In this document: positions 9,007 to 26,070 of the stretch, in pieces | Layout of the letters: the number at the start of each line of letters is the position of its first letter | Position numbering within the stretch: the first letter of the stretch is position 1 | Assembly (NCBI GenBank): GCA_964556685.1 | Contig: CAZKWX010000001.1 | Coordinates: 11,417-75,416 of the forward strand | Length of the DNA stretch: 64,000 nt | Direction of reading: 5' to 3' | From: an uncultured Bdellovibrionales bacterium | GTDB taxonomy: Bacteria; Patescibacteriota; Minisyncoccia; Moranbacterales; DUUL01 | Position numbers and translations under genes: made by a program | Notes under the pieces: generated by a model | Databases searched by the model: none | Told to the model about the DNA's origin: nothing | The model's input: the letters and a program-made list of their open reading frames with translations, nothing else

Positions 9007-9029
9007 TGAAGTGAAGAGCAAGAATTAGG

Positions 9030-9118: not shown

Positions 9119-9214
9119 ATTGGAAAGAAAAGGAATAAATAACTATACAACGTTGCTGTGTCGAGAAATAGTACTTGCCATAGTAAGTACGTCCGAGCAC
9201 GTATTAGAATCATT

Positions 9215-9871
9215 ATGATCAGAAAAAATGTCCCATTTTATGCCAATACGGCAGACAATACACACTGCTTTCAGGCTTCTTTGAAAATGGTAATGAAGTA
9301 TTTTTGGCCAAATAGGAATTATTCATGGAAAAAATTAGATAAAATCACCGCAAAAATTCCTGGACTATGGACCTGGCCAATGGCAGGACTGATCTGGTTA
9401 CAAAAACAAGGAATTGAAATTGCGATGGTTGAAGCTTTTGACTATTCAAGATTCATAAAACTAGGAGGAGAATATTTAATTGAGGAATTTGGGAAAGAAG
9501 TAGGGGAAGCCCAGATCAAACACAGTAATATAGACCAAGAAATAAGATTTGCGAAAGAATTTTTGGAGAGAATTAAAATTGAAAAACGAATTCCCAAATT
9601 AAAAGACATAAAAAGATTTTTAAAGAAAGGTTATGTCATTATATGTAATGTTAATTCTCGCAAATTAGCAAAGAAAGAAGGGTATGTCGGTCATTTTATC
9701 GTTATTTTTAATTTTAATGATAAATATCTTTTTCTTCATAACCCTGGTCTTCCACCCCAAAAAAATCAAAGAGTAAGTTTTAAGCAATTTGAAAAAGCTT
9801 GGGCTTATCCGAATGAAAGAGCAAAAGGAATAATAGCGTTAAGAATTAACATTACTAACCAAGATATTTAA
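9215..9871 (+). CDS. C39-like papain-fold cysteine peptidase domain protein
   Basis: NTHCFQASLKMVMKYFW (Cys motif) and GHFIVIF (His motif) resemble Peptidase_C39-like domains. The tool ORF starts at GTG 9158; the in-frame ATG is at 9215. Confidence 0.4.
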   Translation: MIRKNVPFYANTADNTHCFQASLKMVMKYFWPNRNYSWKKLDKITAKIPGLWTWPMAGLIWLQKQGIEIAMVEAFDYSRFIKLGGEYLIEEFGKEVGEAQIKHSNIDQEIRFAKEFLERIKIEKRIPKLKDIKRFLKKGYVIICNVNSRKLAKKEGYVGHFIVIFNFNDKYLFLHNPGLPPQKNQRVSFKQFEKAWAYPNERAKGIIALRINITNQDI

Positions 9872-9984
9872 TAAATTTTGGACCACAACGCCTCGAAATA
9901 AAACGCCGCATCTATGACAGAGCAAGAAATAAAGGGGCGTAGTACTGGCGATTTAAGCAGGGCGTTCTACTGGCATATACAACA

Positions 9985-10428
9985 ATGAAAAAAATCAACC
10001 TAAAAATAACCACTCCGGAACGAGTGGTGCTAGAAAAAGAAGTTGATCAAGTAACTCTGCCGACTAAGGGAGGGGAGATTACGATTTTGCCTGATCACGT
10101 GCCATTGCTTTCTACCATTACGGCTGGGATCATTGTGGCCAAGATCGACGAACAAATTTCTCCTATGGCGATTTCAGGCGGTTTTTTGGAATATCACAAC
10201 AATCAAGTGACGGTTTTGGCTGACACAGCAGAAAGGGTTGAAGAAATAGATTTGGATCGAGCAGAAGAAGCTCGAAAAAGAGCCGAAAAATTGAAACAGG
10301 AAACCAGGAAAACGCTTGACGAAGGACAATATGCTGCGGTGGTCTCGCAAATTGAGAAACAACTTGCTAGAATAAAAGCAGCCCAAAAATATCGACCTCG
10401 TAGCAGTTCGACATTGGGCGATGAATAG
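9985..10428 (+). CDS. atpC: F0F1 ATP synthase subunit epsilon
   Basis: N-terminal beta-sandwich (ITTPERVVLEKEVDQVTLPTKGGEITILPDHVPL) plus C-terminal helical hairpin. Last atp gene. Confidence 0.85.
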   Translation: MKKINLKITTPERVVLEKEVDQVTLPTKGGEITILPDHVPLLSTITAGIIVAKIDEQISPMAISGGFLEYHNNQVTVLADTAERVEEIDLDRAEEARKRAEKLKQETRKTLDEGQYAAVVSQIEKQLARIKAAQKYRPRSSSTLGDE

Positions 10429-11965
10429 AAATAAAAGACAAATTTTGATAAAAAAAATACCAACTTGGGTTTTGATCTCATTAGCCCTGATTTTGGCTTT
10501 GGGGCTGTTTTTACGTGTCTATAAACTTGGCCAACAATCACTCATAGCTGATGAATATTTGGGGATGAACATTAGCTATGGCTACAATCAAACAGGGGAA
10601 TGGACATTCTGGGATTTCAACAAACAAAAATTGATGGAGTGGGATTATAATCGAGCTCAAATTTATTATTGGCAAGTAGCTCAAGTTTTCAACTTTTTTG
10701 AGCCAACCGAAGCCAACTCTCGCTTGATAAGCGTGATGTGGGGAATGATCGGATTACTTTCAATTTTTTTGATTGCTTTTTGGGTGACAAAAAATTATGT
10801 TGTTGCGCTGATTTCAACCTTGCTTTTGGCAGTGAGTGTTTCTTCACTGACTTTTGATCGAAAGCTGAGAATGTATTCAATGTTTGTTCCGATATACCTT
10901 TGGCTATCCTATTTTTTATATATGTTTATAGAATCTCAGCCGAAAAGGGGGCCAAACTTTATCAAAAATATATCAGAAAAAACCAAACTTAATTGGAATT
11001 TCTTTCTGCCCGCTATTCTATTGGGACTTATATCAGTAGCAACGCATTTACTGGCAGTTAATATTGGAATAGTGTTGTTAGTCTACTTGCTAGTTATGGC
11101 TTGGAAGGCTCGCAAAAAAGAAAAAGCCTGGGCCAATCGATATTCCTATTACCTTATAGTTTTTTTGCTGCTCATTATTATTGGAATGAATTTCAGTTAT
11201 GCTCAACTAGCGTTGAAAGAATTTTCTTTCTGGATAAACAATTGGAGTTACCTATCAAAAGCCAGCTTGGATTATAGTCACATGTTTTTGGCCGGACTCT
11301 TCTTGGTGGCCGGAATATATTGGCTGATTAAAAATAATTCAAAGAAAGGAATTTGGATTGTTGTCTCATATTTAACAATTCTTTTCTTGGCAATTATGGT
11401 TTGGAGAAGAAGCGCTGGGCATCAGTATCTGCTTTTCACCCAACCTTTCAAGATTATGATCATCGCTGGTGGAATCTATTTTATTTCAGATGTTCTTTCT
11501 AAAGAAGTTTTCAATGGCTCAAGGAGGTGGTTTTGGGGACTGATTACAACCTTTTTAATATTGCTGATTAATTTTTCGTTCTTTTCCTCAAAGGAAAGCT
11601 TTTATGCTGGTCCCAAAAGTTGGTCCCACACAAACTATCGTGAGGGATATGATTATTATCATAAGCACCGAAAAGCTAACAGCGCAGTCATCATTCGTCC
11701 AGCGGTGACCTATTACCTGAAGGGCGTGAACACCGATGTCATTGAATACAATGAGGATGACAAGCTTCAGCTAGAAGAAATACTCAGCGCTCAAAGTAAG
11801 TATGATGAAATTTGGTTTATCTATTCAAAAGACACCTATGTAAGTGGAGATGCCAAGGATCATATTCGAGAGAACTTTGAACTAATCGAAACTAAATATA
11901 CTAACAAGAAATTGCAAATTAGAAGGTGGCAGAAAGAAGATACAAAAAATAACGCCAGCTCATGA
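10421..11965 (+). CDS. GT-C family membrane glycosyltransferase (PMT/ArnT-like, GT39/GT83-like), paralog 1
   Basis: ~12 TM helices. DE motif in the first extracytoplasmic loop (SLIADEYLGMN). Overlaps the atpC stop by 8 nt. Confidence 0.6.
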   Translation: MNRNKRQILIKKIPTWVLISLALILALGLFLRVYKLGQQSLIADEYLGMNISYGYNQTGEWTFWDFNKQKLMEWDYNRAQIYYWQVAQVFNFFEPTEANSRLISVMWGMIGLLSIFLIAFWVTKNYVVALISTLLLAVSVSSLTFDRKLRMYSMFVPIYLWLSYFLYMFIESQPKRGPNFIKNISEKTKLNWNFFLPAILLGLISVATHLLAVNIGIVLLVYLLVMAWKARKKEKAWANRYSYYLIVFLLLIIIGMNFSYAQLALKEFSFWINNWSYLSKASLDYSHMFLAGLFLVAGIYWLIKNNSKKGIWIVVSYLTILFLAIMVWRRSAGHQYLLFTQPFKIMIIAGGIYFISDVLSKEVFNGSRRWFWGLITTFLILLINFSFFSSKESFYAGPKSWSHTNYREGYDYYHKHRKANSAVIIRPAVTYYLKGVNTDVIEYNEDDKLQLEEILSAQSKYDEIWFIYSKDTYVSGDAKDHIRENFELIETKYTNKKLQIRRWQKEDTKNNASS

Positions 11966-12963
11966 AGATGTCTAACAAAAGAAAGGTCACTCTGATTTTG
12001 ATGGCGATTCTACTGATAGCTGTCGGAGTCAACCTATATTTATGGAAAAGTGGCGGTGGGGGAGAGAATAATCCTGGAATTCTTAAAATCGGTTTCATCA
12101 CGGATGTTCACTGCTATTCAAAACTTAACAAAGAGACCAACGAGTGGGAGATCAACTGGAGATGCAAACAGCCATTCGATGCCTTCATCAAACAAATGAA
12201 TGAAGAGTTTGGGCCTGATTTCGTAGTTGAAGGTGGAGATTTCGTTGACGGAAGAGATCGTCTAGAGGATGATGGATTTTTAAAGGCCAAAGATTTTTAT
12301 GATCAAATTCGTGCTCCGAAATATCATGTGCTAGGAAATCATGAAACCGACAACATGACCAAAGATTGCTGGAAGGAGATCGTAGGTTACGACAGCACCT
12401 ATTATTATTTTGACATCAAAGATTATCGAATGATTGTTCTGGATGCCAACAATGTTCAAACCGAAGAAGGCATTGTTGACATGAGTCCTAAAACGCCTCA
12501 TTCCTATCGGGGCTTGATGACTGATGAGCAAATGAATTGGTTGAAGAGCTTGTTTGAAGAGTCAAGCGATAAAAAAGTAATTGTGTTTATTCATGAGCCG
12601 CCATTTGATGAAACACCGGGAAGATTGAAAGAGGATCATTTTATTAACCCAAAACCATTGAGAGATTTATTTTCGCAGCATAGAGTCCTGGCAGTGTTCA
12701 GTGGGCACACAGAGGAAATGTGTGACGTGACAATAGACGGAGTGCGATATTTTTCACTCCAAGGATTCCATAAGGGAAATTCACTTTTACCCAAAGAGCA
12801 AAGGTTTAAAGATCAAGGAGCTTTTTATCAAGTGATATTAGATGAAAAAGAGGCAGACGTTGAAATGTTTTATAGTGATGGAAGAGACACGGAATATAAG
12901 TCGATGGAGATAAATCAAGATACAGCGTATTGCAATAACGACGCATTGCCAGAACAGGAATGA
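11962..12963 (+). CDS. calcineurin-like metallophosphoesterase, TM-anchored (paralog A)
   Basis: N-terminal TM helix, then GFITDVHC, GGDFVDGRD, GNHE and GHTE metallophosphoesterase motifs. Confidence 0.75.
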   Translation: MKMSNKRKVTLILMAILLIAVGVNLYLWKSGGGGENNPGILKIGFITDVHCYSKLNKETNEWEINWRCKQPFDAFIKQMNEEFGPDFVVEGGDFVDGRDRLEDDGFLKAKDFYDQIRAPKYHVLGNHETDNMTKDCWKEIVGYDSTYYYFDIKDYRMIVLDANNVQTEEGIVDMSPKTPHSYRGLMTDEQMNWLKSLFEESSDKKVIVFIHEPPFDETPGRLKEDHFINPKPLRDLFSQHRVLAVFSGHTEEMCDVTIDGVRYFSLQGFHKGNSLLPKEQRFKDQGAFYQVILDEKEADVEMFYSDGRDTEYKSMEINQDTAYCNNDALPEQE

Positions 12964-12977
12964 TATTATAAAGAATA

Positions 12978-15116
12978 ATGAAAGAGGTTGATTCAACTAA
13001 AGGGAGAAATAAAAAACCGATTATTTTATTTATCGGTATCGTGATTGCAATAGTGGCTGGAATATTCATATTTAGATCTGACAGAGAATCTTTGAGGATC
13101 GTTTTTGTCACGGATTGGGAATATGGAGAGATGAAAAGAATTGGCAGCAAAGCAAGTGGCTCGGCTGATGAAGAGCTGAAGAAGGTTGTCAAAAGCGCTC
13201 ATCGAGGCATCAACCCAGACCTGGCAATTGGAGGAGGAGACTATATCAACGGCGCAAAAATTGACGAAAAAAAGGCCACAGAGCAACTAAAGCTAGAGAG
13301 AGATATTTTCGAAAAGATAAAGTCCGAAAAAGTATATTTGTTGGGAGATCATGATTTAAAGAAAATTCCACTGCAGCAAGCAGAAGAAATTTTGGGAGTA
13401 AAATATCAAAACAATAGGATCGACAAGAAAGGATATAGGGTGGTATTTCTTAATAGTCAAGAGATTTTTAGAGGCGAGGGTGAGAGGCTAGAAAAAGAGC
13501 TAGCTTGGCTCAAGGCTCAATTGAAAGATGGATTGCCTGTAATAATTTTTTCTCATTTCAACATAATCGCAACGCCCCAAAAGGACAAATGGAAACGAGC
13601 AGCTGGAAATTCTGACAAGATCAGAGAGGTTTTACAAAACCATCCCAATGTAGTAGCAGTTATTATGGGCGAAGGACTGAGAGATTATGCGGTTAGAGAA
13701 AAGGGTATTGTATATGTCTCAATTCCTGGATTGGTTGAGCAAGATTATGTAGGGAGCTATGCTGAAATTCAGGCGACAAAGAAAGATAATTTGGCAGAAA
13801 TTAAAGTTATCCGTCGAGGAATTGACCCGATCGAATACATTATATTCAAAGACTTAACAGATATATACTCAGCTAAGATTGAAGCAAAGGGAGAAGAGAA
13901 AATTGCAGAAATTTTGTGGAACGAATTGGGCGTCCAAAAAGAGGGAAATGTGATGGCCAGCGAAAGCCAGGGGACCGAAAGCAGCCTGAGTGTTTCAGAA
14001 AACGGAAAAGTGTTTGTTGCATATGAAGATGGCGAGGATAAGAATAAGGCGAGAATAAGATCAGTTGGGGCAAAAGAAGCTCAGAATCTTGAAGGCCAAA
14101 ATAGTCAACAAGGAAAAATTAGTCAGCAAAAAGGAGGTGATCCTTTTGTTGAAGCAAGCTCGGAAAAAACATACGTTGGATTTATGGATTATCAAAATGG
14201 AGCTCGAGCTAGGATCAGGGAATGGGACGGTGTGGAGTGGAGAGATCTTGCTGATGCGAATCACCCAGAAGGCCTAATTAGTATTTCCAAAGGACACGAG
14301 CCAGTTTTGGCGCTTGATCAATCAAAACAACTCTACGTAGCTTTTAATCAAGGAGCTAATTCAGAAGTTGAATGCGGTGATGAGTTATGTTGGGTTAAGG
14401 TGATGAAATGGAGTGGCGATGTTTGGGAAGATTTAGGAGACCAGAGTTTTGTTCAGCAATCAGTCAATAATCAACCGGGAACCGAAGTGGCCATTGCTGC
14501 ATCAAAAATAGACGAGTCTGTCTACATCGCATTTCAAAATCAATCTCAAAATAACAAAATTCAGGTAAAACAATACGATGGAGAAAGATGGAAGAATATA
14601 TCAAATTTAGATAATAATTTAGCTACGAATATCTCCGGCTTCAGTCCGTCAATTACTACTGGGAAAAATGGGGGATTATACTTAGCTTATGTTGGTGAGA
14701 ATTTTGAAAAGTTATATATTCAAGAATGGGATGGAAACGAATGGCATCCTGTTGGAGATGGAGCAATTTCTTCGGGAAAATGTTCGGAAGTTGATATCGC
14801 AGTGAGTGATTCTGGGATAATATATGCAGCTTATTCGCAGTATAAGAAGAACACAATTATTCCTAAAAAATCTAAGAAAAAAAATTCAGAGGAATATTTT
14901 CCCAGCAGAAGCAATGCCTGGAGGGTTCGAGTGAAAAGGCTAAACGGAGAAAAATGGGAGAGCATTTCTGATGACTTAAATCCAAGCGGATACATATCTC
15001 GGGGAAACGGAAAAGGAGATCCGTCGTTGGATGTGTGGAAGGAAAACATTTATGTTTCATTCACCGATAAAGCCAGTGATTATAAAGTAAAAGTAAAACA
15101 AACTCAAATTAAATAG
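12978..15116 (+). CDS. TM-anchored degenerate metallophosphoesterase-like domain fused to C-terminal beta-propeller-like repeats
   Basis: N-terminal VFVTDWEYG / GGGDYING / LLGDHD / FSHFNI are divergent MPP motifs. The C-terminal ~350 aa hold 5-6 repeats of the form hYhAF ... (E/Q)WDGxxWxxh.D. Confidence 0.6.
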   Translation: MKEVDSTKGRNKKPIILFIGIVIAIVAGIFIFRSDRESLRIVFVTDWEYGEMKRIGSKASGSADEELKKVVKSAHRGINPDLAIGGGDYINGAKIDEKKATEQLKLERDIFEKIKSEKVYLLGDHDLKKIPLQQAEEILGVKYQNNRIDKKGYRVVFLNSQEIFRGEGERLEKELAWLKAQLKDGLPVIIFSHFNIIATPQKDKWKRAAGNSDKIREVLQNHPNVVAVIMGEGLRDYAVREKGIVYVSIPGLVEQDYVGSYAEIQATKKDNLAEIKVIRRGIDPIEYIIFKDLTDIYSAKIEAKGEEKIAEILWNELGVQKEGNVMASESQGTESSLSVSENGKVFVAYEDGEDKNKARIRSVGAKEAQNLEGQNSQQGKISQQKGGDPFVEASSEKTYVGFMDYQNGARARIREWDGVEWRDLADANHPEGLISISKGHEPVLALDQSKQLYVAFNQGANSEVECGDELCWVKVMKWSGDVWEDLGDQSFVQQSVNNQPGTEVAIAASKIDESVYIAFQNQSQNNKIQVKQYDGERWKNISNLDNNLATNISGFSPSITTGKNGGLYLAYVGENFEKLYIQEWDGNEWHPVGDGAISSGKCSEVDIAVSDSGIIYAAYSQYKKNTIIPKKSKKKNSEEYFPSRSNAWRVRVKRLNGEKWESISDDLNPSGYISRGNGKGDPSLDVWKENIYVSFTDKASDYKVKVKQTQIK

Positions 15117-15280
15117 AGAAGTTACGCGATCTAGGTTTAATTTCTCACAAGTAAGGCATTTTTGCCAAACGTTCGCTCCGCTTCCTAAGGTGTCAAAAAT
15201 ACCTTACTTGCGGGAAATTTCCGTTAAGTAAAGCAGGAAAGTGCGCAACTTCTATTAAATAACAATATACACTAAAAAAT

Positions 15281-16300
15281 ATGCCTAAGAAAAATAAATA
15301 CATAATATTTACGCTTATCGCAGTGCTATTGTTAGTGGGAGTTTTTTTGTATCGAACAAAAAATAGTAAGCTGATCAATGAATGGAGTGAAAAAAAGGTA
15401 GAAAAAATAGCTACCGAGCCATTAAAAGTGGGTTTCATCACTGATGCTCATTGCTATTCCAAGCAGGACAAGGACACTGGAGAGTGGACGCTAAATTGGC
15501 GCTGTCAACAGCCACTAGAAATATTCGTGAAAAAAATGAACGAAGATTTTAGGCCAGATGCGGCAATCCAAAGCGGTGATTTTATTGACGGCAAAGATGA
15601 TCATGCCGAAGGGACATTTATTGAAGCTCAAAAAATATTCGATCAATTGACAATGTCAAAATTGAAAGTGGTTGGCAACCATGAAGTTCGAGATTTCACC
15701 AAGCAGAGATGGCTGGAGATGACGGGAAATGAAAAAACCTACTACCATCAGGACATCAAGGGCTATCGCTTGGTGGTTTTGGATGCAAACAACAAACCTG
15801 GTCAGGACGGGTCGTCAGTCGACACTAGCCCGGAACTTGAATATTACCCAGGTTTTATTGACAAGGATCAAATGAAATGGCTCGAAAAACTACTGAAGAA
15901 CTCAAGAGAATACGAAGTGGTAGTTTTTGTCCACCAGCCAACATTTGCCACAGATGCAAAAGAACAAAGAGAATTGTTTGTCGGGGGAGAAGAATTGAGG
16001 AAACTTTTTGCTGAACGAGGAGTGAGGGCAGTTTTTTCTGGCCACATTGAAAGAGTTTGCAATTTTGAAGAAAATGGAGTGGAATATTTTGTGCTCAAAG
16101 GTTTCTGGAAAGAGAATGGGGGACTCAAAGAAGAATTCCAATATAAAAAAGGCGGAAACTTCAGCGAAGTTACAGTTTTGCCAGATGATGTCAAGGTCGA
16201 AATGTATCATCGGGTAGGGAGAGACATGCCCTATGGGAGCAAGGAGATAACACCCGAGAATTATTCCTGTTTTGACGGGGCGACCCTTGCTGACGATTAG
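15281..16300 (+). CDS. calcineurin-like metallophosphoesterase, TM-anchored (paralog B)
   Basis: Clear paralog of 11962..12963 (VGFITDAHCYSK, SGDFIDGKDD, VGNHE, FSGHIE). Confidence 0.75.
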   Translation: MPKKNKYIIFTLIAVLLLVGVFLYRTKNSKLINEWSEKKVEKIATEPLKVGFITDAHCYSKQDKDTGEWTLNWRCQQPLEIFVKKMNEDFRPDAAIQSGDFIDGKDDHAEGTFIEAQKIFDQLTMSKLKVVGNHEVRDFTKQRWLEMTGNEKTYYHQDIKGYRLVVLDANNKPGQDGSSVDTSPELEYYPGFIDKDQMKWLEKLLKNSREYEVVVFVHQPTFATDAKEQRELFVGGEELRKLFAERGVRAVFSGHIERVCNFEENGVEYFVLKGFWKENGGLKEEFQYKKGGNFSEVTVLPDDVKVEMYHRVGRDMPYGSKEITPENYSCFDGATLADD

Positions 16301-16316
16301 ACCGTCCATACATATT

Positions 16317-18077: not shown

Positions 18078-19788
18078 TTTTCAAAAAAATTGGCACTGGT
18101 GGGTTTTGGGATCGATTATCGTTCTGGCTTTTTTCGTTCGTGTTTATAATTTTCACGACTGGCTCTATTTTGAGGCTGATCAAGTGCGTAATGCTAACAA
18201 TGCCATCGCCGCTTTTGAAAATGGACCAGGAGAACTTCCTCTGCTGGGGCCCAAAGCAGGGGGAACTGACCTCCATCTAGGACCAATTTCCTATTATTTT
18301 GAATATCTGAGCGCAATCATCACTCAGAGCACCAGACCAGAAGTTTTTGCTTTTCCCAATCTGCTATTTCTCTTGCTGCTTGTGCCTTTGACCTATTATT
18401 TTCTTTCTCACTTTTTTCCAAAAAAAATCAGCCTTTTGGTGGTTCTCGTTTTCTCACTATCATATATGGTCACTCAATATTCTCGTTTTTCTTGGAATCC
18501 AAATGCGATTTTGTTTTGGAGTCTGCTTTTTATGCTTGGGTTATATAAAACATATTCAGAAAAAGAGACTGGAAAGTCAGGCTGGTGGCTTCTTGTTATG
18601 GCTCTGAGCTACGCTGTTGCCAGCCAACTGCACATGGTGGCGTTGCTCGGGTTTCCCTTGATAGCAATTATTTTTTGGATTTTCTATCGACCATTTCACA
18701 TCAAATGGGCTTTTTGGCTAGCTAGTATTGCTCTCTTGTTTTTCTTTTATACTCCGGTGATTGTCAATGATCTGAATACCAGCGGATCCAATACGAAAAA
18801 TTTCTTGCATTCACTCGGAAGCAGGAGTGAAAAGAGAGGATTAATTGAAAGCGGAATTAAAACGGTTGATCTGCACGGAAAATATTACACTTTTGCTACG
18901 CTTTCTTTAAATGAAAAAGAATTTAAATTTTCTCATTGGTTAGGAATCTTATTTGTCATTTTTGGTTTTACACTTATTGTTCTTCATTGGAGAGGGAAGA
19001 TTAAATTGTCTAAAAAATTGCCGCGATCGTTCTTGATTCTTCTTTCTGTTTGGTTTGGTGTTTATCTGCTGATTTATTTTAGGTTAGTCTTCGACTTGGA
19101 TGAACCACGCTTTTGGTTTCCAACTATATTTTTGGCTTTTATTTTACTAGCAATTATTTTTTCCTATTTGTGGAAATATCGATGGGGAAAGCCAGCGGTT
19201 TACGTTATTACAATACTGTTAGTTTTATTGAATCTAACCGCAATCGCTAATTGGTATGGAGGTTTGAAAAACCAGGATGAAAAAAACCGCTTTGGCAGAA
19301 AACCGACAAGCACGACTTTAATTCAAAACGACTTTATTGCTTTGGGCGATATAGAAAAAGCAGCCAGCTTAATTACAGAAAGCTTAAGCGTTGGAAAAGC
19401 GTGCTTTAATACTCCCTCGACATATTTAGCATCTTATAAATTTATATTTAACAGAAACCATTCAGAATTTGAAACAAGAAGAATAGACAAGAGCATTGAA
19501 ATTGGCAATGTCGAAGGTTGTGACGTATTCATTCTGGATCATAGTGGGAACAAGAAAGAAGAGATAGAAGAAAAATTCCTGAAAAAAGGAGCCGAAATTG
19601 AGATTAAAAAAATAGGAACGCAGGGATTAATAACGATTTGGGGAGTCAATGTCATTAGGAATGTGAATGCAGAGAATCTTGAATTAACTCAATCAGACGA
19701 AGATCCTGATGGTATTAAAAAAGAAAAAAAGCCCACAAAAAGGCCTCGGTTGAAGTGGAAAGATATCTTTTCGAAAACCGGAAAGTAG
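18064..19788 (+). CDS. GT-C family membrane glycosyltransferase, paralog 3
   Basis: MEKNNFQKNWHWW..VRVYNFHDWLYFEADQVRN mirrors paralog 2. Overlaps its stop by 14 nt. Confidence 0.6.
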   Translation: MEKNNFQKNWHWWVLGSIIVLAFFVRVYNFHDWLYFEADQVRNANNAIAAFENGPGELPLLGPKAGGTDLHLGPISYYFEYLSAIITQSTRPEVFAFPNLLFLLLLVPLTYYFLSHFFPKKISLLVVLVFSLSYMVTQYSRFSWNPNAILFWSLLFMLGLYKTYSEKETGKSGWWLLVMALSYAVASQLHMVALLGFPLIAIIFWIFYRPFHIKWAFWLASIALLFFFYTPVIVNDLNTSGSNTKNFLHSLGSRSEKRGLIESGIKTVDLHGKYYTFATLSLNEKEFKFSHWLGILFVIFGFTLIVLHWRGKIKLSKKLPRSFLILLSVWFGVYLLIYFRLVFDLDEPRFWFPTIFLAFILLAIIFSYLWKYRWGKPAVYVITILLVLLNLTAIANWYGGLKNQDEKNRFGRKPTSTTLIQNDFIALGDIEKAASLITESLSVGKACFNTPSTYLASYKFIFNRNHSEFETRRIDKSIEIGNVEGCDVFILDHSGNKKEEIEEKFLKKGAEIEIKKIGTQGLITIWGVNVIRNVNAENLELTQSDEDPDGIKKEKKPTKRPRLKWKDIFSKTGK

Positions 19789-19914
19789 TTGTTCAGAAAG
19801 CGGAAATTGGTAATGGAAATTTGAAAATAGAAGATAGATAAATTCAAAAATAAATATGCCAATTTCAAATATCCATTTTCAATTACTGATTTCCAGTTTC
19901 CAAACAGCCAGTTT

Positions 19915-21060
19915 CTATATTTTCACTGGCAATCTCCAGATAACTTTGGTAGCCAAGAAGAAGTTTAACAGGGTAGCGGCAATGACGCCGATGATGGCAG
20001 CGAGAATATAGTGCAGTCCGATTGAAAGCCCGAAAGAAAAAATTGCAAAGTTGAAGAACATTGTGACAACAGAAAAAACATAATAATAGATCACTCGACG
20101 CATGCTCTCTTTTCGATCGGGTGATTTTTTGTCGCTATAAGTGAATAGGGAATTGAAAGCATAGTTCGTCAGGATTGAAACTGCTACTGCGATGATATAA
20201 GCTGGTCTTTCGACTATATTAAAAATTTCTACTAAAATTGCCAAGAGGCCAAGGTTCACAATCACGCCACTAGCTCCGACAATGCAGAATTTAATGAAAC
20301 GTCCGGCCTCAGGAACGGTGCGGAAAAGATGCCAAAGGTGACTAAAAAATTCCAGGCCTTGCTTGAGGGTAGCTTTACTTTGGTCATTTTCTCGAGGAAG
20401 AAATTTCTGTGGAACCAAAGAAACCTTTTTTGGATTTGTGCGCACAAGCAATTCAACTTGGATTTTGAAGCCTCTTGGTTCAAGTTTAACCCTTTCAAGT
20501 AGTTCTCTTTTAAAAAGAAAAAGTCCGGCCAAAGGATCAGAAGTCTTGCGAGTAGGAATGAAAATAATTTGAGTGAACCATTTCATTCCCAAGGAAACAG
20601 CTCGCCGATAGATTCCATAAGGAGTTTTGAGACTGCCTAGTCCTGTAGCGCTTCCTCCTTTCATATAACGAGAAGCGGAAACGAAGTCAGCATCATCACT
20701 GATGGCTTTTCCCAACATTGTTAGCATTACTTCTGGTGGATGTTGCAAGTCTGTGTCCATAGAACCAATATATTTGCCTTGAGATTTTTCAAAGCCAACA
20801 ATGACGGCTGAAGCCAAACCTTCTTTATTACCATAAATAAGCCTTATTTGAGGGTCTTTTTGAACCTCCCGTTCAATGATTTTTGGCGTTTCATCGTCGC
20901 TATCATCAACAAAAATCATTTCATAGTCATATTTGGTATTTGCAAAAACAGCCGTCAGCTTCTCGATTAGCGGTAATACGTTATCCTTTTCATTGAACGT
21001 GGGCAGCACAATGCTGAGCAGTTTTTGATTCTCCATGTTTATTTTTTGTAGTTGACGCAT
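19915..21060 (-). CDS. polyprenyl-phosphate glycosyltransferase (GT2, Dol-P-Man synthase-like) with C-terminal GtrA-like TM domain
   Basis: LSIVLPTFNE, FVDDSDDET and DTDLQHPPE are GT2 motifs. C-terminal 4-TM GtrA-like tail. Alternative ATG at 21036 (MENQK...). Confidence 0.75.
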   Translation of the reverse strand: MRQLQKINMENQKLLSIVLPTFNEKDNVLPLIEKLTAVFANTKYDYEMIFVDDSDDETPKIIEREVQKDPQIRLIYGNKEGLASAVIVGFEKSQGKYIGSMDTDLQHPPEVMLTMLGKAISDDADFVSASRYMKGGSATGLGSLKTPYGIYRRAVSLGMKWFTQIIFIPTRKTSDPLAGLFLFKRELLERVKLEPRGFKIQVELLVRTNPKKVSLVPQKFLPRENDQSKATLKQGLEFFSHLWHLFRTVPEAGRFIKFCIVGASGVIVNLGLLAILVEIFNIVERPAYIIAVAVSILTNYAFNSLFTYSDKKSPDRKESMRRVIYYYVFSVVTMFFNFAIFSFGLSIGLHYILAAIIGVIAATLLNFFLATKVIWRLPVKI

Positions 21061-21075
21061 ATATGCGTCAACTAC
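21048..21075. promoter_or_regulatory. 28-bp perfect palindrome GTAGTTGACGCATAT|ATGCGTCAACTAC at the 5' end of the GT2 gene
   Basis: Perfect inverted repeat. A sibling copy lies inside the GT-C paralog 4 CDS at 22364. Confidence 0.4.
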
Positions 21076-21104
21076 GCTATTATAATTTTCGGTTCAATGA
21101 AGTA

Positions 21105-22907
21105 TTATAAAACATCCTTCCAAAAAAGCCTTTCTGTTTTTCCTGACCCTCCTTCTTCATCTGGAGCTAGCTCTTTTTCTTTTTTAGTTGGTAGTTTTTC
21201 TTTTTGGACTTCCAGCTGAAAAACTTCTAACTGTCCAATTTGTTTCGAATCAACTATTTTAGTATAAGGTTGAATTTTTTTGTTGATAGAATTCTTGCCG
21301 CCAGATTTTGTTACTAAAGCAAAAATAGTGTCGACATTTTCCAAGTCACTCGACCCTCCTGCATAGGAATAGTCTATTTCGTTTTGAAGGGAAAGCAAGT
21401 ACTTCGTTGGCAGCATGTATTCTGCTTTAGTGTTATAAATCAATGTCAATCCGGGATTATTTTTGAGCATATACTCAATAGCTTTTTCAAATTGGCCTAA
21501 GGTAACCCCATCTTGGTTTTTGAGAATCAGTGTTCGGTTAGTATCAAAACTTTTTTCTTGAGAAAGTTCGTTTTCCCTGAACCAAGCGCAGGTGCCGAAA
21601 ATATTTAATAATAAGAAAATTGCTGAAATGATAAAAATTAATGGAAGATAATTTTTCACCACTCTTTTTTCTAGTGCCGAAAACCAAAGAGCGATGATGA
21701 TAAATGGGATGGGGAAAACCGGGACAAAATAACGTGGTCTGAGCAGGTACGAAGTAGTAATAGTAACTAAAAAGAACAGTACTATCCAGATAATGAGCAT
21801 GAAAAGAAAGTTTTTATCATTCTGCTTTGATTTAACCTTGTATTCTTTAATGGCCAGATAAATACCAGAAAAAATGAAAAGTAATCCAAACCCAACAGTT
21901 ATGGGGTCAGCTTTGTGGCCTTTTCGGTGACTGAATGAAGTGGTGATCAGTGAATAACCCTTAGCTTGTTCGCGGAAATTTCGAATGATTTTCTTGTGGA
22001 ACTTTTTGTCCTTTGATTTGGCCTCGAAGGCACCAAAAAAGTTTTTAGTGTTTGAAAAATCAGTCTTGAAATCACTAATAATCACTGGGGAATAAATTAT
22101 TCCGAAAATTAAGAGAGTTGTCAAAACATAAAAAAGAGAATTTTTGGAAGAAAGGATGTTTTTAACGTTTCCTGATTGAGGTTTCACCGCGAGTACTCGC
22201 GGTGAAACCTCTCTTGAGCGGTCCCAAATATAATAAACAATGAAAACTACCGAAATTGCAATTAAAGCAAAGGCGGCATAAAAATGAAGTTGCGATGCGA
22301 CAGCAAAGGCAAAGGCCCAAAGAGCAATCCAGCCAATTTTTTTCCAAAGATTCTTATTTTCTTGTAGATGACGCACATGTGCGTCATCTACAGAAGAAAA
22401 ACGCAATAGAGCATAAATTGTCAATAGCATGAAAAACGGCACGGAATTTGGATTCCAGGAGAAACGGGAATACTGAATAATTAAGAAGGAAAAAGAATAA
22501 AGTAATGTGGCTAAAAGAGCTGGCACTGGCTTGAAATAGAGTCGCAAAAATAAATAGAAGAGTGGAATGACTAGAATCGAAAACAGCAAGTCTGGATAGG
22601 CAAAAACGTCAGGGGACGAAGATTTAAAAATCGCACCAGAGGTCCATTGCATGTAATAGTAGGCTGGTCCTAATCGCAAGAAATCTGTGCCACCAGTTTC
22701 AGTTGAGACTTTCGTAGCCCTTGGTCCCAATAGCGGCAAGTTTTCTGCTCCATTTTCAATGGCTGGTTTCAAAAGGGAAGCATCTCGTGCCTGGTCCCAC
22801 TTAAAAAACAGCCAATCATGATGTTGATAGGTTCGAACCCAAATTGCTCCGGCGATGATCAGAACAAGAGCAACGCCAACCCAGATTTTTGTTTTGTTGT
22901 TATTCAT
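21105..22907 (-). CDS. GT-C family membrane glycosyltransferase, paralog 4
   Basis: MNNNKTKIW...VRTYQHHDWLFFKWDQARD. Same architecture as paralogs 2 and 3. Confidence 0.6.
   Translation of the reverse strand: MNNNKTKIWVGVALVLIIAGAIWVRTYQHHDWLFFKWDQARDASLLKPAIENGAENLPLLGPRATKVSTETGGTDFLRLGPAYYYMQWTSGAIFKSSSPDVFAYPDLLFSILVIPLFYLFLRLYFKPVPALLATLLYSFSFLIIQYSRFSWNPNSVPFFMLLTIYALLRFSSVDDAHVRHLQENKNLWKKIGWIALWAFAFAVASQLHFYAAFALIAISVVFIVYYIWDRSREVSPRVLAVKPQSGNVKNILSSKNSLFYVLTTLLIFGIIYSPVIISDFKTDFSNTKNFFGAFEAKSKDKKFHKKIIRNFREQAKGYSLITTSFSHRKGHKADPITVGFGLLFIFSGIYLAIKEYKVKSKQNDKNFLFMLIIWIVLFFLVTITTSYLLRPRYFVPVFPIPFIIIALWFSALEKRVVKNYLPLIFIISAIFLLLNIFGTCAWFRENELSQEKSFDTNRTLILKNQDGVTLGQFEKAIEYMLKNNPGLTLIYNTKAEYMLPTKYLLSLQNEIDYSYAGGSSDLENVDTIFALVTKSGGKNSINKKIQPYTKIVDSKQIGQLEVFQLEVQKEKLPTKKEKELAPDEEGGSGKTERLFWKDVL
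22364..22391. repeat. 28-bp palindrome GTAGATGACGCACATGTGCGTCATCTAC embedded in-frame in the GT-C paralog 4 CDS
   Basis: Near-copy of the 21048 palindrome. Encodes an extra ...DDAHVRHLQ... segment absent from paralogs 2 and 3 at the aligned position. Confidence 0.5.
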
Positions 22908-23094
22908 TCTTGCTCCAGTCTCTGATTAAAATCGTTTTCTTTTCATCATCAACTTCCAATACGACTTTCTGTTTTTCTCTCCACTTCCATTTTCGAACAA
23001 TTTCAATAGGCAATGTTACACCATAGCTAGTTCCACTAGATGTTTTGGTGATTTTTCGAATGAAATGTTCTTCGATTTTTCTTCTAGTTTTCAT
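22900..23094 (-). CDS. AbrB/SpoVT/MazE-family swapped-hairpin DNA-binding protein
   Basis: YGVTLPIEIVRKWKW...VVLEVDDEKKTILIRD matches the AbrB N-domain (VVIPIELRR..G....L.I.VDDEKIIL). Overlaps the paralog 4 start by 8 nt. Confidence 0.55.
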   Translation of the reverse strand: MKTRRKIEEHFIRKITKTSSGTSYGVTLPIEIVRKWKWREKQKVVLEVDDEKKTILIRDWSKNE

Positions 23095-23103
23095 TTTTTT
23101 GCT

Positions 23104-23125
23104 CCACCTGAGATATCTCAGGTGG
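23104..23125. promoter_or_regulatory. 22-bp perfect palindrome CCACCTGAGAT|ATCTCAGGTGG overlapping the RBS of the AbrB-like gene
   Basis: The left arm CCACC is the complement of the GGTGG Shine-Dalgarno of the minus-strand gene starting at 23094. Confidence 0.4.
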
Positions 23126-23162
23126 AAAATATTTTAATGCCTAAGAATGCCTTATTTTGGGG

Positions 23163-24626
23163 TTATTTAGAGGTCTTCTTTTTTAGGGAGTCACGAAACA
23201 TGGTCCAATCTTCTTGCTTGATTTCTTTGAAAATATACAAGAACAACAAATATACAGCAAATAAAATTCCGCCCCAAAGGATGAACATAAATTTTCCTTG
23301 AGGAAGAAAAGAGATGGCGATGAAATAAATCACGATACTAGCTAGAAAGTATTTTAGTAACTTTATATAGTTAATAAACTTGGCCACATTCTTCTGGGAA
23401 AAATAAATTATGACAAACATGACCAAAAGGGAAGTGATTGAGGTGGCGACAGCAGCTCCCATAATGCCATATTGCTGAATCAAAAAGAAACCTAGTATTG
23501 TGTTGGTGACCATGCCAGAAAAAGTGATCCACATTGGAATTCGATTCTTGCCAGCGCCATTGAGAACAAAAGCCAGGGCATAGAAAACCGTCAGGAATCC
23601 AACTCCAAAAGCAAGGATCTGCATTGGCAAATAAGCGGGAATGAAATTTTCGCCATAGAAAAACAAAACGGCCGAAGGTGCGAAAGCGGAGAGCAGAAAT
23701 ACAAAAGGAATCAGCAGCATGAACAAAAAGCGCATCGATTTGTTCATCAGATTTTTTGTTTCTTTGTTCAATCCTTGAGAAGTGGTTTCGGAAATTTTTG
23801 GCAGTAAAATTAAGGTGAGGAAATAGAAAAGATAGAAGGGAATGCGGGCGAGCGTGATGGCCGCGTTGTAGAATCCAGTTAGGGAGTCGTCTTGCAGAAT
23901 TCCTTTGACCATGAAGAGATCGATCGAAATCATGATCTCAAAGAATATCATGAATAAAGTTATTGGCCAGGCAAATTTGATCAGCTTTTTCCAAGTGATT
24001 TCTGATTTTGATTGTATATTTTTCGACTTTAGTTTTTTGTATGGATCAGCAATGAATGCGACGATGAACACGGCCAAAGGAGCCAAAAAGTGGCCCACAA
24101 CGGCTCCAGGGACTGCGAAAATCACAGCTAGTGGAATGATAAAGACCACCTTAGCAAAAGAGCGGAAAAACTTCAGGAATGCTTGTTTTTGGAATTGTTG
24201 AATGCCAACAAAATAATAGACATAGAAGCTGGCCAGAGCGAAAGCTGGGATGATGAGAGAGGAAAGCTGGAAAAGAGGCGTCAGAGTGGGGTCATTAAGA
24301 AGCGTGGCGAAAACAGGCGCCAAAAGGAAATATAAAGTGGTGACGACAACAATCAAAATCAATTGAACTGCCAAAGCATTTTTTCGAATGATGGGAATCT
24401 GATTTTTGTCTTTCTTGAAGATTTCACTCAGATATTTGCTCATTGAAATTGGCACGCCTCGGCCAATCAAAACCACAACCATGGTGGACAAGGTGATGGC
24501 CAAAGCATAGCGACCATAATCTGCCGGACCCAAAACCCGGCCCAAAACTGAGTGGACAATGTAACCAGAAATAGCAAAGGCCATTTCTGCTAGGAGCAAC
24601 CAAATTGAAGCACGGACTAGGGACAT
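23163..24626 (-). CDS. MOP-superfamily polysaccharide flippase (Wzx/MurJ-like)
   Basis: ~14 TM helices, 487 aa. Typical polysaccharide biosynthesis protein topology. Confidence 0.7.
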   Translation of the reverse strand: MSLVRASIWLLLAEMAFAISGYIVHSVLGRVLGPADYGRYALAITLSTMVVVLIGRGVPISMSKYLSEIFKKDKNQIPIIRKNALAVQLILIVVVTTLYFLLAPVFATLLNDPTLTPLFQLSSLIIPAFALASFYVYYFVGIQQFQKQAFLKFFRSFAKVVFIIPLAVIFAVPGAVVGHFLAPLAVFIVAFIADPYKKLKSKNIQSKSEITWKKLIKFAWPITLFMIFFEIMISIDLFMVKGILQDDSLTGFYNAAITLARIPFYLFYFLTLILLPKISETTSQGLNKETKNLMNKSMRFLFMLLIPFVFLLSAFAPSAVLFFYGENFIPAYLPMQILAFGVGFLTVFYALAFVLNGAGKNRIPMWITFSGMVTNTILGFFLIQQYGIMGAAVATSITSLLVMFVIIYFSQKNVAKFINYIKLLKYFLASIVIYFIAISFLPQGKFMFILWGGILFAVYLLFLYIFKEIKQEDWTMFRDSLKKKTSK

Positions 24627-24631
24627 CTGGA

Positions 24632-24683
24632 ATGTATTAGGTATTAATACTTTGTCATTCCCGTGAAGGCGGGAATCTATTAG
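24632..24683. repeat. Family F element (TATTAGGTATTA..TTGTCATTCCCG-loop-CGGGAATCTATTAG)
   Basis: Reverse-complement copy of the element at 55193-55250. Confidence 0.6.
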
Positions 24684-24899
24684 TCAGTGTTTTTTAAAGA
24701 CGTATTCTATATTAACAATAAAATCTTCTCCTTCTTCAATTATATCTATTTGTTTATCAATCACTTCATATCGCCCAGCCTTTTCAGAACTATCCTTTTT
24801 AAAGCTTAAAATATCTCCAATGGATAGAGGCATTCCTCCTTGAATAGAGACAACCTCTTCTTTTCCATCAATAATTATTTTTGTATTTTTCTTGATCAT
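24684..24899 (-). CDS. hypothetical small protein
   Basis: 71-aa ORF in an operon-like arrangement downstream of the Tmk-like gene. No recognisable motif. Confidence 0.3.
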   Translation of the reverse strand: MIKKNTKIIIDGKEEVVSIQGGMPLSIGDILSFKKDSSEKAGRYEVIDKQIDIIEEGEDFIVNIEYVFKKH

Positions 24900-24903
24900 T
24901 TTT

Positions 24904-25497
24904 CTAATTATTTATTACTGATTGGAGTTCTTCGAAAACTTCATCCCGGCTTTGTTCGCCATCGATCACAGTCATTTTCCACCGCTTACAAAAAATTCTG
25001 TAAAGCTTCCTTTTATCGTGCAGATAATCAGGGCTCTGATCAATCGATTTTTCACGATTAAGAACGGCATCGGGTGAAACGTCAATGAAAATATAATAAT
25101 CAGGCGGAACAATCTTTTTTTCTGCCGAGCCTAGCAGGCCTTTAATGTTTCTCTCACCCTCTAAGTAGAGGATGTTGACTATTTGATCATAGAAATACCT
25201 GTCGGTGATGACATAGTCGTTGCCAGCTTTTTCCAATCGATCATAATATTTTTTGAATCTCGTTAGGTCAATCAATAATCCAATTTTTCGCAAAAAGATT
25301 TTGAAAAACCCAGCCGAAGTAACCGACTTGCTTTTCTTGTCTTTCGGTCTTCTCCTTAAGGTGGTGTTAGCAATAGAAAAATCAAGCACGTGAAAATATT
25401 GAACGGTTTTTCCGTTTTTCTCGAGATCATCTTTGAGCCTTTCGACTTGAGTGGATTTTCCGGAACCATCAATTCCAGAAATAGAAATGATTTTCAT
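24904..25497 (-). CDS. thymidylate kinase-family P-loop kinase (Tmk-like)
   Basis: GIDGSGKST P-loop and a DRY-like motif (ITDRYFYD) match the dTMP kinase family. Diverges elsewhere. Confidence 0.55.
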   Translation of the reverse strand: MKIISISGIDGSGKSTQVERLKDDLEKNGKTVQYFHVLDFSIANTTLRRRPKDKKSKSVTSAGFFKIFLRKIGLLIDLTRFKKYYDRLEKAGNDYVITDRYFYDQIVNILYLEGERNIKGLLGSAEKKIVPPDYYIFIDVSPDAVLNREKSIDQSPDYLHDKRKLYRIFCKRWKMTVIDGEQSRDEVFEELQSVINN

Positions 25498-26039
25498 TTT
25501 TTATATATTCTAAGCAAATAGGATGCTGCAAATAGCTGAATTGTACCCATGACAAAAAATAGCACTGTGAAAGATGAATAATTCACAATCAGCCCACCAA
25601 CAATAATAGCTATTCCAGCAATAATAATCCATACGCCTTCAGCTAGTCCCCAAGCAAAACCACTTTTCTTCCTAGTTGTGCTTTCTGCGTACAATGCATC
25701 CCAGGTAGGCATGATAAAAGCGGAACCGATGCCAATGCCAGCTTGAACTAACAGTAACTCAATCGGTGAGGAAACTAGCAAATACCCATAAGTAAACAGA
25801 GCTACAATAAAGAAACCAATAATCAGCAGTTTTTCTTTGGAGATGTTTTTATCTGAATATTTTCCAACTAAAATTGTTGTCAGTCCCATTAATATTAAAT
25901 AAACAGCCCAAGCCCATGAAATGTCTAATATGTTGCCTCCAACTTGCTGCCCGAAAACTGCAAAGAGGGGGCCGAGCATTCCTGCGCTCAATGACCATAA
26001 GCCAATGCCTATTAATAATGTTCTTCCGTTTTTGTTCAT
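25494..26039 (-). CDS. MFS-like 6-TM membrane protein (half-size)
   Basis: Six predicted TM helices with MFS-like loops. Only half the usual 12-TM length. ATG at 26039 (the tool ORF starts at GTG 26063). Confidence 0.4.
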   Translation of the reverse strand: MNKNGRTLLIGIGLWSLSAGMLGPLFAVFGQQVGGNILDISWAWAVYLILMGLTTILVGKYSDKNISKEKLLIIGFFIVALFTYGYLLVSSPIELLLVQAGIGIGSAFIMPTWDALYAESTTRKKSGFAWGLAEGVWIIIAGIAIIVGGLIVNYSSFTVLFFVMGTIQLFAASYLLRIYKK

Positions 26040-26070
26040 CGTCAATAAGGTAATACGAAACACCTATCTA

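Follow-up and report, generated by a model that had tools for sequence, protein, structure and literature searches.

Bacterial three-component glycosylation systems combine a GtrB/CsbB-type GT-A synthase, a GtrA/Wzx flippase and a glycosyltransferase (GT) of the GT-C fold, as in CsbB-GtcA-YfhO, GtlA-GtcA-GtlB and GacI-GacK-GacL (PMC8035078). Neither 'phosphoesterase' nor 'phosphodiesterase' occurs in the main text of that 2021 review (PMC8035078). Here we analyse a 64-kb stretch of Moranbacteria DNA (the window, in whose numbering all coordinates are given), in which the genes of four GT-C proteins (GTC1 to GTC4) and three calcineurin-like metallophosphoesterases (MPP1 to MPP3) form one cluster (10421-24626) with those of a synthase of the archaeal dolichyl-phosphate mannose synthase (DPMS) type, an AbrB/MazE-like protein and a MOP/Wzx flippase. 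In related genomes GT-C and MPP domains are joined in single proteins. This coupling is real and, as far as our literature search reached, undescribed, as a first-pass annotation made from the sequence alone had supposed.

Phosphoesterases do occur in pathways of a similar kind. The Bacillus subtilis metallophosphoesterase UpsH (YpbG) frees undecaprenyl phosphate (UndP) from teichoic and teichuronic acid intermediates linked to undecaprenyl diphosphate (UndPP), and UshA frees it from UndP-sugars, products of CsbB-type synthases that sequester the carrier when GT-C transfer becomes limiting (PMC11898649). Pentofuranose three-component systems and the mycobacterial decaprenyl-phosphoarabinose (DPA) pathway combine a polyprenyl-phosphoribose synthase, a phosphatase (HAD PRP domain or Rv3807c) and a GT-C (PMC11127046).

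The cluster described here shares with the three-component systems the clustering of a polyprenyl-phosphate-sugar synthase, a flippase candidate and GT-C proteins, as well as the acidic motif in the first outer loop of the GT-C; several GT-C paralogues are likewise found in B. subtilis (YfhO, YkcB and YkoS). It departs from them in that its synthase, which is of the archaeal DPMS type, includes a GtrA-like domain, that its GT-C proteins belong to two families, one of them without a Pfam model, and that it has dedicated MPPs, predicted to face outwards, whose relatives are fused to GT-C proteins. UpsH provides a functional precedent for an MPP-fold enzyme acting on a carrier-lipid-linked glycan. 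By its description, however, it is set apart: it is proposed to work at the cytoplasmic face, belongs to COG1408 with a canonical HxH motif, is stress-induced and is neither clustered nor fused with a GT-C, whereas the MPPs of the window are GpdQ/Icc-like with a GHxE motif, and their predicted extracytoplasmic topology differs from the cytoplasmic catalytic domain of the UpsH type. As in the DPA and pentofuranose systems, a phosphoesterase is an integral and sometimes fused part of a GT-C pathway. The phosphatase in those systems is nevertheless cytoplasmic, removes the 5-phosphate of the lipid-linked ribose donor, belongs to HAD or another non-MPP family (Rv3807c) and, where fused, is fused to the synthase; the GT2 enzyme of the window gives no phosphorylated sugar, and it is to the GT-C, on the outer side, that MPPs are joined in related genomes. 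The HAD PRP and Rv3807c phosphatases are thus an analogy and not the same thing.

In the eukaryotic glycosylphosphatidylinositol (GPI) pathway, GT-C proteins that depend on dolichyl-phosphate mannose (PIG-M/V/B/Z) work alongside PGAP5/Cdc1, an MPP that takes off an ethanolamine-phosphate side branch. There too a dolichyl-phosphate mannose synthase, several GT-Cs and a membrane-bound MPP act on one lipid-anchored glycan at the non-cytoplasmic side; the GPI proteins are neither clustered nor fused, and the likeness is one of analogy only. In B. subtilis, ykoQ may encode an uncharacterised metallophosphoesterase beside a GT-C/GT2 pair, but a literature search for a ykoQ-ykoS-ykoT link gave no usable result.

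Results

Fusion of GT-C proteins and phosphoesterases

GTC1 represents a family that we call GTC_A, and GTC2, GTC3 and GTC4 a second one, GTC_B. Four GTC1 homologues of 821-835 residues carry a Pfam Metallophos domain, of which MPP1 is the orthologue. In these GTC_A fusions the C-terminal domain of the GT-C part leads straight into the GFxTDxH motif of the phosphoesterase, without a linker and with the MPP anchor gone. A profile scan of 1.84 billion cluster representatives yielded 147 clusters at E <= 1e-30, among which at least 12 are full-length GT-C::MPP fusions, three with GTC_A and nine with GTC_B. All 12 have the GT-C part N-terminal and the MPP part C-terminal, and all lack the MPP anchor; over the 110 residues that precede the MPP domain none shows a hydrophobic stretch. 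The MPP domains of GTC_A fusions and those of GTC_B fusions fall into different clades (~30% identity), and the GHxE motif is kept in both. Fusions are also present in species-representative genomes (loci L017, L018, L087, L030, L031 and L049). Assembly or frameshift artefacts were rejected as an explanation in view of their recurrence on many contigs (P0126 on 11, P0371 on 25), the consistent deletion of the anchor and the involvement of two GT-C families. The NCBI name of the fusion proteins checked is 'hypothetical protein', and no solved structure spans both domains.

Two further proteins, in L062 (2843-5581, minus strand, 912 residues) and L072 (2932-5757, minus strand, 941 residues), have a divergent C-terminal MPP domain (residues ~610-915) behind an N-terminal part of ~600 residues that stays below the GT-C profile thresholds. 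They may represent a further, more divergent type of fusion, similar to that of L031 (904 residues, GTC_B plus divergent MPP).

Two families of GT-C proteins

The four polytopic proteins had been taken for GT-C paralogues sharing one N-terminal motif. All four are GT-C proteins, GTC1 by its structural model, GTC2 and GTC4 by Pfam, and GTC3 by paralogy and its homologues; a common motif and clear paralogy are confined to GTC2-GTC4. GTC2 scores 34.7 bits against PMT_2 (cutoff 26.1) and GTC4 just reaches the threshold of PMT (22.9 bits, cutoff 22.7), while neither GTC1 nor GTC3 has a significant Pfam match. GTC3 is 27-31% identical to GTC2 and GTC4, and its homologues (E 1e-115 to 1e-38; 28-40% identity over ~90% or more of the length), some of them named 'glycosyltransferase family 39', carry PMT_2/PMT. 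For GTC_A, none of the 50 homologues listed has a GT-C Pfam domain, the sole precomputed match being Metallophos in the four fusions. As profiles against PDB sequences, the GTC_A and GTC_B alignments retrieved nothing meaningful. Sequence profiles being too weak, the GT-C assignment called for structure prediction. The AlphaFold2 model of GTC1, computed with 44 homologues, reached a pLDDT of 92.6 and a pTM of 0.91. Its best 37 matches in the PDB are all GT-C proteins (probability 0.96-1.00, best TMq up to 0.59), namely AglB, ArnT, STT3, PglB, ALG9/12, DPY19, Pmt4, AftA, Emb, ALG6 and PIG-M-like proteins, and unrelated transporters appear only at E > 0.07.

The GTC_B proteins share the motif W/F-x-R-x-Y-N/Q...DW...(A/W)DQ(A/V)R, in which D43, Q44 and R46 are invariant in 16 sequences. 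The corresponding GTC_A motif is L-R-x-Y-K-L-G...IADEY, with D44 and E45 invariant in 45 sequences. An acidic residue in the first outer loop is therefore conserved in both families (D44-E45 and D43, respectively). GTC1 is only 17-23% identical to GTC2-GTC4, and profile-profile comparison of the two families (hhalign) gave a probability of 72% and an E value of 3e-5; judged by these alignments, GTC_A is remotely related to GTC_B. The GTC1 sequence is consistent with about 11 transmembrane helices, with the N-terminus inside, the C-terminus outside and a C-terminal outer domain of ~120 residues. Its N-terminus is rich in Lys/Arg, the first loop is acidic and 62 residues long, and Lys/Arg-rich loops alternate with others. 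By context, a DPMS-type synthase being encoded in the cluster, these GT-C proteins may use a polyprenyl-phosphate-linked donor and transfer the sugar outside the membrane.

GTC_A is not always part of a cluster: L019, L024 (on a 1.3-Mb contig), L042 and L052 each have a solitary GTC_A gene (39-44% identity to GTC1), and neither GTC_B nor an MPP, a MOP flippase or a DPMS-type synthase is encoded within 7-10 kb of it.

Two intact phosphoesterases and a degenerate one

The first-pass annotation counted three membrane-anchored phosphoesterases. All three proteins indeed score above the Pfam Metallophos threshold (MPP1 61, MPP2 26.4 and MPP3 45 bits) and have one N-terminal hydrophobic segment preceded by Lys/Arg; MPP2, however, has probably lost its catalytic function. 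MPP1 and MPP3 are 41% identical. Compared with the five motifs of PF00149 (DxH, GD, GNH(D/E), H and GHxH), both differ only in the last His, which is changed to Glu: MPP1 keeps all metal-ligand motifs (D48-x-H50, G92-D93, G125-N126-H127, H211 and G248-H249-x-E251), and MPP3 has D-x-H, G-D, G-N-H-E, H and G-H-x-E. The family is marked by the replacement of GHxH by GHxE, and its metal ligands do not vary among 30 members and all fusions. MPP3 is the orthologue of the 'second' MPP in the tandem pairs of related genomes.

The MPP domain has its closest solved relatives among phosphodiesterases, namely GpdQ (E 2.5e-12), Rv0805 (E 1e-10) and the ADPRibase-Mn-like protein 2nxf, followed by purple acid phosphatases; Foldseek gave E ~1e-10 for GpdQ and Rv0805, with 2nxf as the top fold match. 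GpdQ of Enterobacter aerogenes and Rv0805 of Mycobacterium tuberculosis have the five-motif binuclear metal site in common with the MPP domain, but are soluble or peripheral, lack a GT-C link, carry GHxH and are about 17% identical to it. The best NCBIfam matches, the cyclic-nucleotide phosphodiesterases SpdA (49 bits, cutoff 400) and CpdA (29 bits, cutoff 225), lie far below the cutoffs, and motif V is GHxE. By sequence, MPP1 and MPP3 are thus nearest to the class III/GpdQ group (Icc, CpdA, Rv0805) yet are not members of it. Their invariant catalytic residues and the fusions suggest that both are active phosphodiesterases.

In MPP2, by contrast, four of the eight key residues of the catalytic motifs are lost: DxE replaces DxH, GDHD replaces GNHE and GExL replaces GHxE, whereas GD and the single His remain. 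With 83 bits against the family profile the fold is homologous, and the orthologues in four other genomes have lost motif V as well (GDSS or GNSS). The C-terminal ~400 residues contain about 6-7 repeats of ~55 residues with the pattern ...G-x-hYhAF...V-x-x-W/Y-DG-x-x-W. Against Pfam and the PDB this region gave sub-threshold or spurious matches only (ISOA1-3_C over 34 residues; Rax2 propeller, E 0.024). The repeat pattern is the sole basis for regarding it as possibly a beta-propeller. Because catalytic residues were lost and a repeat domain was gained, MPP2 is probably a pseudoenzyme that serves as a non-catalytic, substrate-binding partner.

Other loci contain further variants. In L043, L053 and L070 the MPP directly following GTC_A is of a third type, with DxE and GHxP motifs, and is nearer to MPP2 (30-32% identity) than to MPP1; still other variants occur in L028 and L051 (GDHD; GDxH or GExH). 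The family therefore shows repeated erosion of the catalytic motifs.

The first-pass annotation had also expected the MPP active sites outside the membrane. The Lys/Arg preceding the anchor, the GT-C topology and the fusions all predict extracytoplasmic MPP domains; because the two are fused in relatives, the MPP domain and the C-terminal soluble domain of the GT-C would lie on the same side of the membrane. In MPP1 only ~12 residues separate the anchor from the first strand.

Synthase and flippase

The GT2 protein with a GtrA tail had been likened to dolichyl-phosphate mannose synthases, and this proved correct over its whole length. It matches the Pyrococcus furiosus DPMS 5mlz with an E value of 7.4e-55 (residues 13-375 of 381 against 24-372 of 374) and the Pfam models Glycos_transf_2 (101 bits) and GtrA_DPMS_TM (73 bits), so that, on sequence homology, it is a full-length polyprenyl/dolichyl-phosphate hexose synthase similar to DPMS type III. 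The GtrA-like domain is part of this synthase. By profile the MOP protein may just as well be a MurJ/SpoVB-type as a Wzx-type flippase; it adjoins the GT-C pair in most Moranbacteria and is a candidate flippase for a lipid-linked sugar or a polymer linked to polyprenyl diphosphate (polyprenyl-PP).

Conservation of the cluster

Scanning one genome per species and annotating with our own profiles, we obtained 80 loci that contain a GTC_A gene, almost all of them from Moranbacteria; 48 of them have at least 5 kb on either side and are termed well-flanked. The MPP1 homologues come from Moranbacteria/Patescibacteria. Of the 80 species-representative loci, about 35 (for example L012, L019 and L021-L023) bear the title 'uncultured Bdellovibrionales bacterium', although their gene order is of the Moranbacteria type and their proteins are 30-54% identical; the Bdellovibrionales label of these third-party annotation assemblies looks wrong.

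The order GTC_A-MPP-MPP-GTC_B x3-DPMS-GTC_B is kept in three other genomes with unrelated flanks. L011 and L013-L015 have the arrangement of the window behind the ATP synthase operon, and one relative that shares this position also has an MPP2-type gene. In a more distant relative an MPP of 36% identity directly follows a GTC_B gene inside a five-gene PMT_2 cluster. All loci with sufficient flank in which GTC1 identity is at least 45% have MPPs. The expectation that MPP genes are conserved neighbours of genuine GT-C genes was therefore borne out in all close relatives, and fusions occur in at least 12 clusters. Of the well-flanked loci, 20 of 48 (~40%) have an MPP no further than 10 kb away, and in 14 of these 20 it lies next to a GT-C gene or is fused with one. 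GTC_B and the MOP flippase are each present in 39 of the 48, and the layout seen most frequently is GT4-GTC_B-GTC_A facing Wzx-Tmk-RtcB-GT4. Where a DPMS-type synthase is encoded within 10 kb, an MPP is present as well in 7/7 species loci, compared with 20/73 loci without the synthase (Fisher p = 2.8e-4, not corrected for phylogeny, although the loci are not phylogenetically independent), which links the MPPs to the polyprenyl-phosphate-hexose branch.

The Wzx-Tmk-RtcB-GT4 block is syntenic across dozens of Moranbacteria with or without MPPs, and Tmk and RtcB therefore resemble conserved neighbours more than members of the pathway. The cluster as first delimited (10421-26063) included a Tmk-like kinase and a half-size MFS protein; their family assignments, like that of the Wzx-like flippase, hold, but both were rejected as pathway members on synteny. 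They are probably bystanders (24904-26063), which ends the cluster at 24626. The half-size protein matches residues 1-166 of the 347 of MFS_1, and its stop overlaps the Tmk start. None of 90 related loci, where Tmk directly follows RtcB, has a counterpart, which leaves a gene remnant or a half-transporter specific to this lineage.

Such bystanders could suggest that the MPPs, too, are merely syntenic, being nutrient-scavenging or cyclic-nucleotide phosphodiesterases with no functional link to the GT-Cs. The weak NCBIfam matches to SpdA and CpdA and an MPP homologue of 31% identity without a GT-C neighbour would fit, as would the conservation of Tmk and RtcB. At least 12 independent fusion clusters, in two GT-C families, with fixed order and the anchor always lost, and fusion proteins recurring on as many as 25 contigs make this reading highly improbable.

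Layout of the locus and neighbouring genes

Every open reading frame (ORF) claimed in the first-pass annotation is present at its coordinates (Table 1). After atpC, which encodes ATP-synthase epsilon, the plus strand carries GTC1, MPP1, MPP2, MPP3, GTC2 and GTC3 in this order; the MOP flippase, the AbrB/MazE-like protein, GTC4 and the synthase are encoded convergently on the minus strand. GTC1 starts within atpC and has its last 4 nt in common with the start of MPP1, which speaks for translational coupling of these two genes; the GTC3 start overlaps the GTC2 stop by 14 nt. An overlap of 8 nt between the AbrB/MazE-like ORF and the GTC4 start agrees with the translational coupling proposed for this pair. 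The likely start of GTC2 is the ATG at 16317, and the NCBI gene call gives an identical 586-residue product. All GT-C and MPP profile matches of the window are confined to 10.4-22.9 kb, and their clustering is therefore not due to chance.

Scans of the cluster for promoters (64 versus 40 in shuffled controls) and terminators (19 versus 14) were barely above background, and operons were not defined from them. No tRNA or Rfam element was found in the window. Between the stop of the MOP flippase gene and the AbrB/MazE-like ORF, 9 nt upstream of the latter, is a perfect 10+10 palindrome, TCCACCTGAG-ATAT-CTCAGGTGGA (23103-23126), which may serve the small DNA-binding protein as an operator or else form a terminator hairpin.

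Table 1. Features of the GT-C/MPP cluster and of its surroundings in the window
Feature	Coordinates	Strand	Description
232-residue protein	8308-9006		no family given; between atpD and atpC
237-residue protein	9158-9871		C39-peptidase / Guanylate_cyc_2-like; between atpD and atpC
atpC	9985-10428	+	ATP-synthase epsilon
GTC1	10421-11965	+	514 residues, GT-C fold, family GTC_A, no Pfam model
MPP1	11962-12963	+	333 residues, N-terminal anchor and calcineurin-like domain
MPP2	12978-15116	+	712 residues, anchor, degenerate MPP domain ~39-300, repeats ~330-712
MPP3	15281-16300	+	339 residues, anchored phosphoesterase, catalytic motifs all intact
GTC2	16317-18077	+	586 residues, GTC_B family, Pfam PMT_2 above threshold
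GTC3	18064-19788	+	574 residues, GTC_B family, placed by paralogy and homologues
Polyprenyl-phosphate-hexose synthase	19915-21060	-	archaeal DPMS type, GT2 domain and 4-helix GtrA/DPMS membrane domain
GTC4	21105-22907	-	600 residues, GTC_B family, Pfam PMT at threshold
SpoVT/AbrB/MazE-like DNA-binding protein	22900-23094	-	64 residues, Pfam MazE_antitoxin/AbrB
MOP-superfamily flippase	23163-24626	-	Polysacc_synt / MurJ / SpoVB-like
Tmk-family kinase	24904-25497	-	Pfam Thymidylate_kin
Half-size MFS protein	25494-26063	-	189 residues, Pfam MFS_1 first half only
GT4	28025-29200
Membrane protein	30431-32422		663 residues, weak DUF1616; syntenic in L017/L087
GT4	33085-34194
GT2	34395-35393
UDP-glucose dehydrogenase	36586-37878
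558-residue protein	37934-39610		no family given
DUF4012 protein	39864-41255
RmlC/RmlB/RmlD	41655-44184
TagA/WecG-type transferase	48404-49105

Envelope-glycan genes continue beyond the cluster (26227-49105). Because its GT4, GT2, UDP-glucose dehydrogenase, Rml and TagA/WecG-type genes extend to ~49 kb, the organism probably also builds a rhamnose-containing wall polymer linked to polyprenyl-PP. Amid this glycosyltransferase block lies a DUF559 / REase_MTES_1575 endonuclease-like gene (116 bits; 29980-30369, minus strand), and a PD-(D/E)XK nuclease-like ORF is found at 45383-45751. On the other side of the cluster the ATP synthase operon (6758-10428) is interrupted by two ORFs between atpD (6758-8134) and atpC, which directly follow each other in L011 and L013-L015. 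A second C39-like protein is encoded at 52427-53713.

Discussion

On the basis of these results we favour, with some confidence, a multi-component extracytoplasmic glycosylation system of the Moranbacteria envelope, of the three-component type, to which a phosphodiesterase acting on a membrane-proximal phosph(odi)ester is physically coupled. Its core follows the logic, invoked in the first-pass annotation, of a polyprenyl-phosphate-sugar synthase serving GT-C enzymes, which the Pfam matches, the fold matches of GTC1 and the full-length DPMS homology support. The DPMS-type GT2, in view of its strong homology, would load a hexose onto polyprenyl phosphate at the cytoplasmic face. The lipid-linked sugar would then be flipped, the MOP protein being the candidate. 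The four GT-Cs, GTC1 of GTC_A and GTC2-GTC4 of GTC_B, would transfer the sugar to surface acceptors outside, as their fold and the invariant acidic residue suggest. Beside them, MPP1 and MPP3 of the GHxE subfamily would hydrolyse a phosphodiester or pyrophosphate close to the membrane at its outer face, with MPP2 probably as a substrate-binding partner.

As for the substrate of the MPPs, we tentatively prefer, by analogy with UpsH and UshA, the phosphate bond that joins a sugar or glycan to its lipid; it may belong to a polyprenyl-phosphate sugar, an intermediate linked to polyprenyl-PP or a phospholipid-anchored glycolipid. The enzyme would in that case release or recycle the lipid carrier, or edit the intermediate bound to it. 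It is almost as likely that the enzyme removes a substituent attached to the acceptor glycan by a phosphodiester.

Several observations weigh against the proposed coupling or its details. Among the well-flanked loci, 28 of 48 have no MPP within 10 kb yet keep the GTC_B-GTC_A-Wzx core; the MPP is therefore accessory, and GT-C function does not depend on it. Some of the synteny reflects phylogenetic inertia, the unrelated genes Tmk and RtcB being neighbours that are just as conserved. The topology is a prediction from hydropathy and homology, and the model of a fusion protein has a pTM of 0.76. The specificity of an MPP cannot be read from its sequence. It would look futile for a GT-C to be fused to a hydrolase of its own donor unless the acceptor gates that hydrolase, and the precedent, UpsH, comes from another MPP subgroup (COG1408) and is proposed to work at the cytoplasmic face.

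The first-pass annotation had envisaged that the MPPs remodel the acceptor or product, cutting phosphodiester-linked groups on the surface polymer glycosylated by the GT-Cs and so exposing or trimming acceptor sites; glycerol-phosphate, sugar-1-phosphate and phosphocholine-type substituents or teichoic-acid-like backbone bonds are candidates. Such a role is in line with the glycerophosphodiesterase GpdQ as the closest solved relative, with a repeat domain in MPP2 that could bind polymer and with the TagA/WecG-type, Rml and GT4/GT2 enzymes for a wall polymer in the window. It would also suit the position of the MPP in the fusions, behind the C-terminal outer domain of the GT-C, which in ArnT, PglB and AglB usually handles the acceptor. 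Comparable tasks fall to two enzymes of the MPP superfamily, PhoD (teichoic acid) and PGAP5 (GPI anchor). However, the window showed no gene for the addition of a phosphodiester substituent, with no LtaS/GacH-type, LicD-type or CDP-glycerol-related gene found among the ORFs scanned, and the very short tether holds the catalytic domain at the membrane surface and not in the wall. We regard remodelling as possible, if on the doubtful side.

A different activity would follow if some of the GT-Cs were similar to oligosaccharyltransferases or ligases acting on polyprenyl-PP glycans flipped by the MOP protein, with the attached MPP converting the released polyprenyl-PP to polyprenyl phosphate in a manner similar to UppP/PAP2. 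AglB, STT3 and PglB are among the best structural matches of GTC1; ArnT, a monophosphate-donor enzyme, nevertheless matches equally well. The GT4-GTC_B-GTC_A core beside a MOP flippase fits a pathway via polyprenyl-PP, although most of the loci with this core have no MPP. LpxH and ADPRibase-Mn, both MPPs, cleave pyrophosphates, and the ADPRibase-Mn-like 2nxf is the top fold match. The MPPs co-occur, however, with a monophosphate-sugar synthase (7/7 loci), whose pathway yields polyprenyl phosphate and not polyprenyl-PP, and a carrier pyrophosphatase thus seems unlikely to us.

More speculatively, and with still less probability, GT-C::MPP proteins may form an unrecognised class of bifunctional extracytoplasmic enzymes in which glycosyl transfer from a polyprenyl-phosphate donor is mechanistically coupled to the cleavage of a lipid-phosphate bond. 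The MPP could then create the acceptor by removing, in the manner of acid sphingomyelinase, the head group of a membrane phospholipid that was scavenged from a host, so that the GT-Cs build a lipoglycan outside; alternatively, it could release the finished glycan from its lipid. If such a class exists, lipid-auxotrophic bacteria of the candidate phyla radiation (CPR) could build surface glycolipids or glycopolymers without cytoplasmic lipid synthesis.

CPR bacteria are uncultured and host-dependent, with reduced genomes, and how they build their envelopes is largely unknown. For annotation, the GTC_A family, which lacks a Pfam model, and the GHxE metallophosphoesterase subfamily provide handles on these genomes, and a fusion protein of about 830 residues is a compact target for expression and assay. 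Extracytoplasmic glycosylation by GT-C proteins has been described as the work of a synthase, a flippase and a transferase. The recurrent fusion with a phosphodiesterase points to an extra chemical step at the outer face that is absent from these models and that could be the release of the carrier lipid or phosphodiester editing.

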